Below are positions 16,695 through 19,328 of a stretch of DNA of 64,000 bases, piece by piece. Every line of letters starts with the position of its first letter. Within the stretch, counting starts at the first letter, position 1. Under the pieces are notes generated by a model. That model did no database searches. It worked only from the letters and a program-made list of their open reading frames with translations, and was not told the DNA's origin. Source of the DNA: Nitrososphaerales archaeon (GTDB taxonomy: Archaea; Thermoproteota; Nitrososphaeria; Nitrososphaerales; Gagatemarchaeaceae); the NCBI GenBank assembly GCA_032906705.1, contig JAJTZC010000001.1, positions 9,464 through 73,463 on the forward strand, in the 5' to 3' direction. Made by a program: the position numbers and the translations under genes.

Positions 16695-17630
16695 CTAGCG
16701 CGATGAGTACAGTCTCGCCACCTTTACCGCGAGGTCCGCAACGCTTGCTGGGCTAGCCCCGAACAGGTACACATTGGGCTCGACGCCCATCCCGCCGGAA
16801 TCGATGACGGCATCGAAGTCTCCCCTTGCACCGCTCAACCTCCGCTTCAGGGCTTCAACTGCGCCATCCCCTGGACCGGACTGCCGGTAACCTCCGATGT
16901 CGAGGGTCCGCAGGCCGAGCTTCCTGAGAACCGCCTTGACCTTACCGTCGTACCGCAGATTGACGGTCGCACGAACATCTTGGCGACGCGCCTTGACCAG
17001 CAGCAGGACCTTGGCCATGTGTCTCGATGCTCCGAACTCGGGAGGAAGCATGGCTTTGGCAGCTCGCTTGACCTTAACAATCCTTCCAGGCACGGCGACG
17101 ACATCGTCGGGCGTGCGAGAATCCTCCGGAGCGTATGCAATGTTTACCGAGACCTCGGGCATGACAGCCACAAATGCCTTGGATGACTCGAGCACACTTA
17201 CGGCGTCCTTCACCTGGGCTATGGCCCCAGACCTGTCGCCATCGCTCTCTCCGTACTCCTTGATGCAAACATCGCACTGCGCCAGCGAGGGATGGAGCCT
17301 TCTATGCGCCTCGCAGACCAACCCTCGGCCTAGCAGACTCCTCCAGATTGAGCCAAGAGTGCTGACGGCTTCCACGGAGCTTCGCTTGACATCCTCAGCC
17401 AGCAAGGCCGCGTACCTGTCGACATCATCTCTGCCAAGGGCCAAGGTCGCCAGCGCTGAGTAGGCCTTCTCAGCCTTGGACGAAAGGTAGAGGCTCACCG
17501 ACGCCTGCGTCGTGCCGAGCATGCCGGAGATCTGACTTTGTGAATGGCCCTGGGAGCTTAGCACCTTCGCGACCAGCTGCCTCATTGAAGGGAGGAAGAC
17601 CTGGACCATCAGTTCGTCGGGAGGCTGCAA
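16695..17630 (-). CDS. thiR: HTH plus ThiN-like domain protein (ThiR-type thiamine regulator)
   Basis: N-terminal HTH (SQSQISGMLGTTQASVSLYLS). C-terminal ThiN-like block is MPEVSVNIAYAPE...DVVAVPGRIV...GASRHMAKVLL...NLRYD...DSGGMGVEPNVYLFG. Confidence 0.7.
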   Translation of the reverse strand: MQPPDELMVQVFLPSMRQLVAKVLSSQGHSQSQISGMLGTTQASVSLYLSSKAEKAYSALATLALGRDDVDRYAALLAEDVKRSSVEAVSTLGSIWRSLLGRGLVCEAHRRLHPSLAQCDVCIKEYGESDGDRSGAIAQVKDAVSVLESSKAFVAVMPEVSVNIAYAPEDSRTPDDVVAVPGRIVKVKRAAKAMLPPEFGASRHMAKVLLLVKARRQDVRATVNLRYDGKVKAVLRKLGLRTLDIGGYRQSGPGDGAVEALKRRLSGARGDFDAVIDSGGMGVEPNVYLFGASPASVADLAVKVARLYSSR

Positions 17631-17633
17631 CGC

Positions 17634-17658
17634 ATAAACGACTTATTGAGTCGTTTAT
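17634..17658. promoter_or_regulatory. perfect 10-bp inverted repeat ATAAACGACT-N5-AGTCGTTTAT overlapping a shared TTTATAA box between thiR and thiT
   Basis: Read directly from the sequence. TTTATAA (17654-17660) lies 24 nt from the thiR TTG (17630) and 25 nt from the thiT ATG (17685). Confidence 0.55.
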
Positions 17659-17684
17659 AAGGCTGACAAGGGCAGAGAATCCTC

Positions 17685-18230
17685 ATGAACGGTCGGATTC
17701 CAACAAGGGTCCTCGCGGAGGCAGGCGTGATGATCGCTCTTGCTACAGCCCTCAACGCAATCAAGGTCTTCACGTTTCCGGAGGGAGGCTCGATTACGCT
17801 TGGGGCGATGGTCCCCCTCCTCTTCTTCGCCCTGAGGAGAGGCGCCAAGGCGGGCGTCGTGGGGGGCGCGGTGTTCGGTATCATCGATGTGTACTTCGAG
17901 CCCTTCGTCTACAACCCTTTCCAGTTCCTCCTCGACTACCCTCTCGCCTTCGGCGCGTTGGGACTCGCAGGTTTGTTCAAGGGTCGATGGGAAGGCCGGG
18001 GGCCGCAAGGTCTGGTCACTGTAATCGGGGTGGCGGCAGGAATCGCAGGCCGTTACTGCTTCCACTTTCTTTCCGGGCTGGTCTTCTTCGCGAGCTATGC
18101 CCCAGCAGGCGAGAGCCCCGCCCTCTACTCGGCCATCTACAATGCGAGCTATCTCATCCCCGAATTCGTCATCAGCGCGGCTGTCATCTTCGCATTGGCG
18201 AACAGAGGGGCTCTGAAGACAGCCCTCTGA
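17685..18230 (+). CDS. thiT: thiamine transporter ThiT (ECF S-component family)
   Basis: Close motif match to ThiT: VPLLFFALRRGAKAGVVGGAVFGII, LLDYPLAFGALGLAGLF, YCFHFLSGLVFFASYA. Confidence 0.8.
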   Translation: MNGRIPTRVLAEAGVMIALATALNAIKVFTFPEGGSITLGAMVPLLFFALRRGAKAGVVGGAVFGIIDVYFEPFVYNPFQFLLDYPLAFGALGLAGLFKGRWEGRGPQGLVTVIGVAAGIAGRYCFHFLSGLVFFASYAPAGESPALYSAIYNASYLIPEFVISAAVIFALANRGALKTAL

Positions 18231-18245: not shown

Positions 18246-19328
18246 GTGATTGGCGAAACGAGGGAACCTGACATGAGCATGAACGAATATGGGAAGCCAG
18301 GGCCCGACTTCATGAAGCGAGTAGTCTTCAACAGCCTAGGCGCAAGCGACCGGAGGACAATCAAGGGCCCCGGGAGAGGGTTGGACAACGCGGTGGTTGC
18401 GGTTGGGAGAACCGGCGTGATGCTGATCACAACCGACCCCATGTCCGTGATACCAGCGGTCGGGATGGAAAGGTCTGCCTGGCTGAGCGTCCACCTCGTG
18501 GCTTCGGACTACACCACGTCTGGCCTAAGACCAGAGTTCGCCGCGTTCAATTTCAACTTCCCCGACGAGATGCGGACGAGCGACAGGGCCTGGTATCTCA
18601 GGTGCGTCGGAACGGAATGCCAGAAGCTGGGAGTCTCGATAGTGGCGGGTCACACAGGGAGCTACCCGGGAGCAGGCTACACAGTGATTGGCGGGGGTGC
18701 GATGTTCGGCTTTGGCAGCCGCGGAGAGTACCTGGATCCCACGATGGCGCGGGTTGGGGACACAATCTTGATGACCAAGGGGGCGGCCATCGAGGCAACA
18801 GCCACTCTCGCCTTCTCTTTCCCTAGGTACGTGGAAAGGGAGGCAGGGGGAGTCGTCTTGCGCGGGGCCAAACGTTTCATCGGTCTATGCTCCACGGTCA
18901 GGGACGCCGCGCTCGCCAGCTCCTTCGGCAAAGGGCCTAGTGGAGTCACCTCCATGCACGACGCGACCGAGGGAGGCGTCTTGGGAGCACTAGAGGAAGT
19001 GGCATCCGCGAGCGGCAAAGCGTTCGTGGTCGATAGGGAGACTGTTCACGTCCCGCCAGAGTCGGAGGCTGTTTGCGGCGCTTTCAAGATCGACCCACTC
19101 ACCTCCCTCAGCGAGGGCACCCTGCTACTTACGTGCAATGAATCTAGGGCCGAAGGACTGGCGAAGAGGCTTCGCAGGGACGGTGTGCCTGCGTTCGTGA
19201 TCGGCCGAGTCAGGCAGGGAAGAGGCCTCTGGATGTCGGAAGGCGGAAGAACGCCCAGAAGGTTAAGGCCGAAGCCTGACCAGTACTGGAAAGCGTACAT
19301 GCTTGCGACAGAATCAGGGCTGAGTTAA
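18246..19328 (+). CDS. AIR-synthase-related (PurM/HypE/ThiL superfamily) protein, HypE-like but lacking the C-terminal Cys
   Basis: GLDNAVVAVG..MLITTDP, VSIVAGHTG, HDATEGGVLGALEE and SEGTLLL motifs. Ends ...ATESGLS with no PRIC-type terminus. Confidence 0.7.
   Translation: MIGETREPDMSMNEYGKPGPDFMKRVVFNSLGASDRRTIKGPGRGLDNAVVAVGRTGVMLITTDPMSVIPAVGMERSAWLSVHLVASDYTTSGLRPEFAAFNFNFPDEMRTSDRAWYLRCVGTECQKLGVSIVAGHTGSYPGAGYTVIGGGAMFGFGSRGEYLDPTMARVGDTILMTKGAAIEATATLAFSFPRYVEREAGGVVLRGAKRFIGLCSTVRDAALASSFGKGPSGVTSMHDATEGGVLGALEEVASASGKAFVVDRETVHVPPESEAVCGAFKIDPLTSLSEGTLLLTCNESRAEGLAKRLRRDGVPAFVIGRVRQGRGLWMSEGGRTPRRLRPKPDQYWKAYMLATESGLS

Follow-up and report, generated by a model that had tools for sequence, protein, structure and literature searches.

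The closest described counterparts of the locus analysed here are the ThiR regulators, which have been studied experimentally in Metallosphaera yellowstonensis and in Pyrococcus (PF0601). ThiR is reportedly found in Crenarchaeota, Halobacteria and Thermococci, and in a 2017 survey of 67 genomes attributed to Rodionov et al. it is said to be a repressor that binds DNA only with thiamine phosphate. In that account, the protein joins an N-terminal DNA-binding domain to a ThiN-like domain, its palindromic operators are lineage-specific and are found in promoters of genes for thiamine transport and salvage, control does without a TPP riboswitch, and the regulator gene belongs to its own regulon. 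The locus described here, found in an archaeal window of 64,000 nucleotides (the whole stretch of DNA that was analysed), shares these traits. It differs in its operator consensus, ATAAGTnACTTAT, which keeps a constant distance of 8 nt to the TATA box, and in that its regulon consists of a single locus in a probable thiamine auxotroph. To our knowledge, the Nitrososphaerales/Thaumarchaeota MAG lineage to which it belongs stands outside the 67 genomes of that survey.

Promoters in which one TATA box serves two directions have also been described. In Pyrococcus furiosus, bidirectional initiation from one symmetric TATA box, with starts 49-50 bp apart, was confirmed in vitro (PMC6640164), and in Thermococcus kodakarensis starts lie 52 bp apart around a shared TTATAAA (bioRxiv 10.1101/2020.01.31.928960). 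The present locus likewise has a symmetric TTATAA(A) box midway between predicted divergent starts about 50 bp apart, the start codons here being 55 bp from each other. In the Thermococcales, however, the starts are mapped and the second transcript is mostly a non-coding antisense RNA, whereas here both products are those of conserved protein genes, apparently leaderless, and the pair is predicted to be regulated. A further likeness is found with the haloarchaeal gas-vesicle promoters PA-PD, where the upstream activator sequences of GvpE are reported to serve two close divergent promoters as well (PMC2241852); that system has two TATA boxes 35 nt apart and an activator, while ours has one TATA box and most likely a repressor. 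Both ThiR regulons and shared-TATA promoters are therefore of known kinds, and what would be new, judging from the comparisons below, is the lineage, its own operator consensus and the fixed phase of the operator to the TATA box.

The features of the locus are the following, in window coordinates.

16695-17630, minus strand: thiR, with a TTG start, encoding an N-terminal HTH and a C-terminal ThiN-like sensor domain (PF10120, 8e-44)
17634-17646: putative operator core O1, ATAA-N5-TTAT, here ATAAACGACTTAT; the family consensus ATAAGTnACTTAT is a 6-1-6 palindrome
17634-17658: perfect 10-5-10 palindrome ATAAACGACT-TATTG-AGTCGTTTAT, unique in the genome
17647-17654: 8-nt spacer between the core and the TATA hexamer, at the BRE position for the thiT direction, and possible left arm of a second operator, O2
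17654-17660: self-complementary TATA box (T)TTATAA, with its hexamer at 17655-17660, invariant in all sites
17685-18230, plus strand: thiT, with an ATG start, a thiamine transporter gene of the ECF S component type (PF09515, 1e-48)
18246-19328, plus strand: PurM/AIRS-like gene, 15 nt past thiT, with AIRS and AIRS_C domains

The palindrome sits between the gene for the HTH and ThiN (ThiR-type) protein and thiT, in an intergenic region of 54 nt (17631-17684), exactly as the preliminary description had it. Allowing up to three mismatches, it has one match in the window and none in 100 dinucleotide shuffles, and the sequence at 17634-17658 is the sole good match in the 1.37-Mb genome. A genome search with the half-site ATAAACGACT finds this locus only; the shorter half-site AAACGACT has 27 matches in the genome, with no second palindrome among them. 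A reading of this repeat as a terminator or hairpin was rejected, because both genes diverge from it. ThiT reaches 146 bits against TIGR02357, for which the cut-off is 108, and the PurM/AIRS-like product matches ThiL and HypE weakly. The PurM/AIRS-like gene lies downstream of the transporter gene in most orthologous loci, whichever type of transporter is encoded; here it is probably co-transcribed with thiT and would therefore come under the same control, probably as a member of the predicted ThiR-controlled unit. As for the other side, the thiR start codon of relatives is ATG, GTG or TTG, always at the position matching 17630, and the start at this position can be taken as real since the Pro-Pro codons that follow it differ among relatives at third positions only. 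The TTG start itself (17628-17630, minus strand) is unusual on a presumed leaderless mRNA. Leaderless transcripts with non-AUG starts are usually translated inefficiently, and the TTG codon may hold the level of ThiR low.

We then considered the TATA box, for which it had been claimed that one palindromic element lies at promoter distance from both starts. This holds: the TTATAA hexamer is separated by 24 nt from each of the two start codons, that of thiR and that of thiT. Among the 27 orthologous loci, the distance on the thiR side is exactly 24 nt in 23, and on the transporter side 52 of the 67 sites have a long open reading frame that starts 20-28 nt past the hexamer, most often at 23 nt, a count that is somewhat favourable in that it takes the start codon nearest to 24 nt. 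TTATAA is rare in the genome (40 copies), and its distance to the starts of open reading frames of at least 100 aa peaks sharply at 21-28 nt genome-wide, a peak that points to mostly leaderless genes; the thiR and thiT mRNAs are probably leaderless too, with starts placed from the sequence. Since the 24-nt spacing on both sides matches that of the other promoters of the genome, the reading in which one shared box would drive two leaderless genes, from predicted start sites, is well supported. At 6 of the 40 copies long open reading frames start 19-29 nt away on both sides, as against none with a control window of 40-50 nt, so that the two-sided arrangement recurs in the genome. These six sites are at position 17655 of the window and, in the genome (G000), at C6:29027, C17:4447, C17:14418, C17:22911 and C38:8173. 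Divergent leaderless pairs on one TATA box thus seem to be a recurrent promoter design in the lineage. Across 29 TTATAA promoters of the genome, the upstream flank showed no clear BRE consensus.

Comparison with relatives established which part of the palindrome is conserved. About 70 related sites share a module that reads, in order, thiR start, N3, ATAA-N5-TTAT, N8, TTATAA, about 23 nt and a gene for a thiamine-related transporter. It is present in 27 of 27 orthologous thiR loci, all oriented alike and spread over at least five families of the order (the genus and family of this genome, plus four others), and it is also found in more distant families. Of the 81 genomes sampled in the family, 57 carry ATAA-N5-TTAT-N8-TTATAA as an exact match, about once each, with no match for the reversed control, and with up to two mismatches 78 of the 81 have it. 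Over 69 distinct sites the consensus is tATAAgtcacTTATt.a...atTTATAAg; the ATAA and TTAT blocks are kept in nearly all of them, the 8-nt spacer has a fixed length in all, and the right flank is weakly conserved, with R at +1. From this consensus the best-conserved unit is a 13-bp palindrome of the form 6-1-6, and the recognition core would be this unit and not the 25-bp palindrome. The copy at the present locus is imperfect, reading ATAAAC-G-ACTTAT where the consensus has ATAAGT-N-ACTTAT. Distant families with full-length ThiR homologs carry either the same motif or different ones, a mixture that fits lineage-specific ThiR motifs.

The module is tied to thiamine genes. The gene to its right in relatives always encodes a thiamine-type transporter, be it ThiT, ThiW, an NCS1 permease, an APC-type permease or an ECF-S-like protein of 190 aa that belongs to no Pfam family. 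Moreover, the module also stands alone, with no thiR beside it: before thiW-198aa-MFS-thiDN in G005, of the same genus, 27 nt before thiT in G011, and 26 nt before thiW in G036, of another family. The expectation that the motif would precede further thiamine genes is therefore borne out in relatives. Read in the direction of the thiamine gene, the core comes before the TATA box in all three stand-alone cases, with no gene on the divergent side, and for this reason the core is not a thiR promoter element. At the level of the order, the motif is found in 5 of 5 genomes with a full-length ThiR, while the 11 genomes that lack one yield two matches, which are unlike the consensus, at chance level and accompanied by matches to the control pattern. 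An exact match in contig C20 of G010 (ATAACACTTTTAT...) was set aside as chance, being unlike the consensus and in an AT-rich genome with many control matches. The palindromic module thus appears, on this comparative evidence, to mark a regulon of thiamine genes in relatives. One relative (G015) has two thiR copies (C4:1451-2410 and C47:4700-5656), with a module at each.

In most relatives the position of ThiT beside thiR is taken by a membrane protein of 187-204 aa (for instance L007:870-1436, L011:870-1448 and L022:842-1441, all on the minus strand). It belongs to no Pfam family, has a conserved VFSALIAxGT..SIPLPPPLYEITW stretch, and is grouped with ECF S components in the Atlas (0.95 for a Nitrososphaerota cluster and 0.92 for named ECF S families), which makes it a candidate for a new thiamine-related substrate-capture protein.

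In the assembly under study (1.37 Mb in 69 contigs, 87% complete, 58% GC), thiC, thi4, thiD(N) and thiW were not found, and the regulon in this genome therefore consists of the single locus. The gene content suggests that the organism is probably a thiamine auxotroph relying on ThiT. Control by a TPP riboswitch was rejected, given that the THI-box (RF00059) has no match in the genome; positions 17400-17900 match no Rfam family at E values up to 1, and the intergenic region lies upstream of both genes, as opposed to the leader location of a THI-box RNA.

The protein encoded next to the site, of 311 aa, is the candidate regulator that had been proposed, and its domains agree with that proposal. 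Its ThiN domain (PF10120, 8.4e-44, residues 139-302) is the only one in the genome, and this half of the protein matches the PDB sequences 2php and 2pb9. An AlphaFold2 (AF2) model built with 30 orthologs has a pLDDT of 88.6, and its C-terminal half superposes on the same two ThiN structures (Foldseek TMt 0.80-0.86). Two ThiN residues, R183 and H204, candidates for thiamine-phosphate binding, are invariant in the 30 orthologs; they are 21 residues apart, a spacing that is reportedly also that of R320 and H341 in Pyrobaculum ThiN, and no liganded ThiN structure was found for comparison. Residues 1-130 are modelled as an all-helical domain (pLDDT 91) with an HTH formed by helices 31-38 and 42-50. 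In structural comparison, this domain comes closest to the DNA-binding domain of operator-bound DeoR (Z 5.5, rmsd 1.7, 49 residues), with many further HTH domains behind it; all of these matches have Z of at most 5.5, where values below 8 are weak, and cover the HTH sub-domain only (VIA-align). The whole N-terminal domain has no PDB counterpart at E below 1 (Foldseek), and Pfam gives sub-threshold HTH matches only. Going by the model, it is an HTH DNA-binding domain. Taken together, PF10120, the HTH of the model and the co-occurrence of motif and ThiR make the site very probably the operator of this protein.

Of the 201 genomes sampled in the phylum, 84 encode a full-length ThiR homolog, with 27-42% identity over residues 1-308. 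The close homologs belong to MAGs that carry the label Nitrososphaerales or Thaumarchaeota and were obtained from soil, peat and groundwater. In addition, the N-terminal domain carries, in a helical extension of the DNA-binding domain (residues 106-122; 17265-17315, minus strand), a C-x2-H-x9-C-x2-C motif, whose residues C106-x2-H109...C119-x2-C122 are nearly invariant among orthologs and may form a metal site. We know of no description of a C-x2-H...C-x2-C motif in ThiR.

Based on these results, we consider it likely that the 54-nt thiR-thiT region is a compact bidirectional promoter under repression by ThiR when thiamine is sufficient. The sequences establish the anatomy of the site and how it is conserved, and also that it goes with thiamine genes and co-occurs with ThiR; from these, and by analogy with characterised systems, we infer that ThiR binds, that the mRNAs are leaderless, in which direction and by what ligand logic they are regulated, and that there may be a second site. 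TBP and TFB would assemble on TTATAA in either orientation, giving a leaderless thiR mRNA leftwards and a mRNA for thiT and the PurM-like gene rightwards. ThiR, probably as a dimer, would bind the 13-bp core, which covers -4 to -16 with respect to thiR, past the TATA box and before the start, so that the bound protein would block RNA polymerase. A site between TATA box and start is classical for an archaeal repressor that blocks polymerase recruitment. With respect to thiT, the same core covers -39 to -51 and abuts the BRE, and the footprint of a dimer would overlap this element and hinder TFB. If thiamine phosphates are needed for binding, as in characterised ThiR, a sufficient supply of thiamine would turn off uptake as well as the regulator itself.

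The claim that a dimeric regulator bound to the palindrome would occlude the TATA box for both genes stands in part. The repeat very probably holds a ThiR-type operator, but its conserved unit is the 13-bp core and not the 25 bp, and this core ends 8 bp before the hexamer. Occlusion of the TATA box would need a weaker second site over the box, of which there are only hints. These hints lie in the spacer columns and in a mild excess, among phylogenetically non-independent sites, of near-perfect 25-bp palindromes (8 sites with at least 9/10 pairs against about 3.4 expected). Over the 69 sites position 16 is A in 74%, position 18 a pyrimidine (Y) in 86% and position 20 a purine (R) in 90%, as compared with 31%, 41% and 55% at the matching offsets of the general TTATAA promoters of the genome. 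Moreover, the decamers that end in the TTAT of the TATA box and in the TTAT of the core follow a common degenerate pattern, A-S-Y-S-R-Y-TTAT. On this pattern, a second, degenerate operator may lie 12 bp past the core, with the TATA box as its right arm. A second dimer on this copy could then cover the TATA box, and at the present locus the copy would happen to mirror the left arm perfectly, giving the 10-5-10 palindrome.

It is also conceivable, though we think it improbable, that the site works in a dual mode, in which core-bound ThiR would repress its own gene and activate the transporter operon by recruiting TBP and TFB. This would require a reversed ligand logic, with apo-ThiR binding to DNA and thiamine phosphates releasing it. 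The geometry speaks for it: whether a module stands alone (three cases) or is linked to thiR, its core always lies upstream of the TATA box for the transporter gene, with an invariant spacer of 8 nt. The archaeal activators Ptr2, TrmBL1, GvpE and TFB-RF1 bind just upstream of the BRE, and a fixed site directly upstream of this element is the typical position of an activator. Overlapping activator sites between divergent promoters are, in addition, documented for GvpE (PMC2241852). The characterised ThiR proteins, however, are reported to be repressors that require thiamine phosphate for DNA binding, and with that ligand logic uptake would be activated when thiamine is plentiful, which would be physiologically pointless; the skewed composition of the spacer and the half-site within the TATA box also fit occlusion better. 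The same low probability is meant to include a related version, in which the TATA box is the right arm of a second operator and ThiR and TBP would compete for one TTAT.

A further alternative, which we hold to be quite unlikely, takes the whole 25-bp palindrome as the recognition unit, with one ThiR oligomer centred at 17646 that would cover the right arm and the TATA box. Perfect arms of 10/10 pairs occur in 2 of the 69 sites (here and in L095) against 0.34 expected from column shuffles, and arms of 9/10 in six more against 3.0. At the centre, the columns T10-A16 and A12-T14 are mostly complementary, and the two centre pairs are common in the family.

Nevertheless, the four outer pairs are forced, because the ATAA of the core complements the TTAT of the TATA box, and given the conserved columns the probability of at least one perfect site among 69 is 0.29. 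The five variable arm pairs are complementary in 5 of 5 cases here and in 2-3 of 5 in relatives of the same genus; over 27 sites they give 55 complementary sequence-pairs where 51 are expected, and in these 27 sites no covariation at variable positions rises above the column-shuffle expectation, whether for the 13-bp inverted repeat, the 25-bp inverted repeat or the 12-nt direct repeat. Furthermore, with half-site centres 15 bp apart, the two subunits of a simple dimer would contact the DNA from opposite sides. In one genus (g8), the operator passes through the series ATAAGTCACTTAT, ATAAGTCACTTGT and ACAAGTCACTTGT by a symmetric change (T2 to C and A12 to G), with the variants ATAA..TTGT and ACAA..TTGT, and the compensatory double change to ACAA..TTGT keeps the 13-bp palindrome, spares the TATA box and breaks the 25-bp symmetry. 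The perfect symmetry at the present locus is close to chance expectation and is not conserved in relatives, and the long palindrome is at most a lineage-specific extension of the 13-bp core. In the TTGT clades of g8 (L025 and L085-L096), the end of the recognition helix changes from Ser to Lys or Arg (TQASVSLYLK/R as compared with ...YLS), a correlation within one clade that may hint at co-evolution of protein and DNA.

It is highly improbable that ATAA-N5-TTAT is a core-promoter feature (a second TATA-like element or an initiator for thiR) or the site of another factor, with the palindrome incidental: all conserved blocks are indeed TATA-like (ATAA, TTAT) and the promoters of this genome are AT-rich islands in 58%-GC DNA, but the block persists at stand-alone sites from which no second gene diverges, is unique in the genome although further TATA-like inverted pairs are found 4-10 times, goes together with thiamine genes and with ThiR itself, and lies 3-12 nt from the thiR start, too near for a TATA box.

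Two other sites of the genome were observed alongside. A stand-alone paralog of the ThiR N-terminal domain, of 141 aa, is encoded just upstream of lipoyl synthase (G000:C5:36642-37086; L129:843-1287, with the gene at L129:843-1265 on the minus strand) and matches HTH_3 at 1.6e-5, with 25.3 bits against the Pfam cut-off of 23. This Cys-rich HTH protein of the COG2522 type has in common with ThiR the TQASVS helix and the C-x2-H...C-x2-C residues, with 27% identity to the N-terminal domain; it differs in having no ThiN sensor domain and in that its neighbours are not thiamine genes. Its leaderless promoter carries the motif TTATCAC-CTAT-GTTATAG (TTATCAC-N4-GTTATAG), found in at least eight relatives. 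Another perfect palindrome, of 14 bp (ATAACAT followed by ATGTTAT), lies over a TTATAA box and adjoins the gene of a PLP-dependent (PALP) enzyme (G000:C3:8681-8716; L130:1282-1317), and similar sites of the form TTATAAC-N4-GTTATAA recur in relatives. These paralog-type motifs, TTATCAC-N4-GTTATAG and the 14-bp palindrome, differ from the ThiR core, and they too are found on the TATA boxes of leaderless genes.

Returning to the reading that we favour, a shared promoter repressed by ThiR, the locus would be a conserved, protein-coding and, by prediction, regulated case of two leaderless genes expressed from one symmetric TATA box, an arrangement so far known mainly from Thermococcales, where it gives rise to antisense noise. 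At 54 nt, the region is small and may serve as a compact test system for the action of one archaeal repressor on both directions of a shared promoter. Moreover, ATAAGTnACTTAT at 8 nt before the TATA box could help to find genes of thiamine uptake and salvage in the uncultured archaea of this lineage, and the candidates already predicted by this motif include the ECF-S-like transporter family and the transporter-linked PurM-like enzyme. Overall, the findings would extend the enzyme-derived regulator ThiR to a lineage of Thaumarchaeota from soil, peat and groundwater; the switch is a vitamin switch of the expected kind, here in soil-type Thaumarchaeota, where it was previously undescribed.
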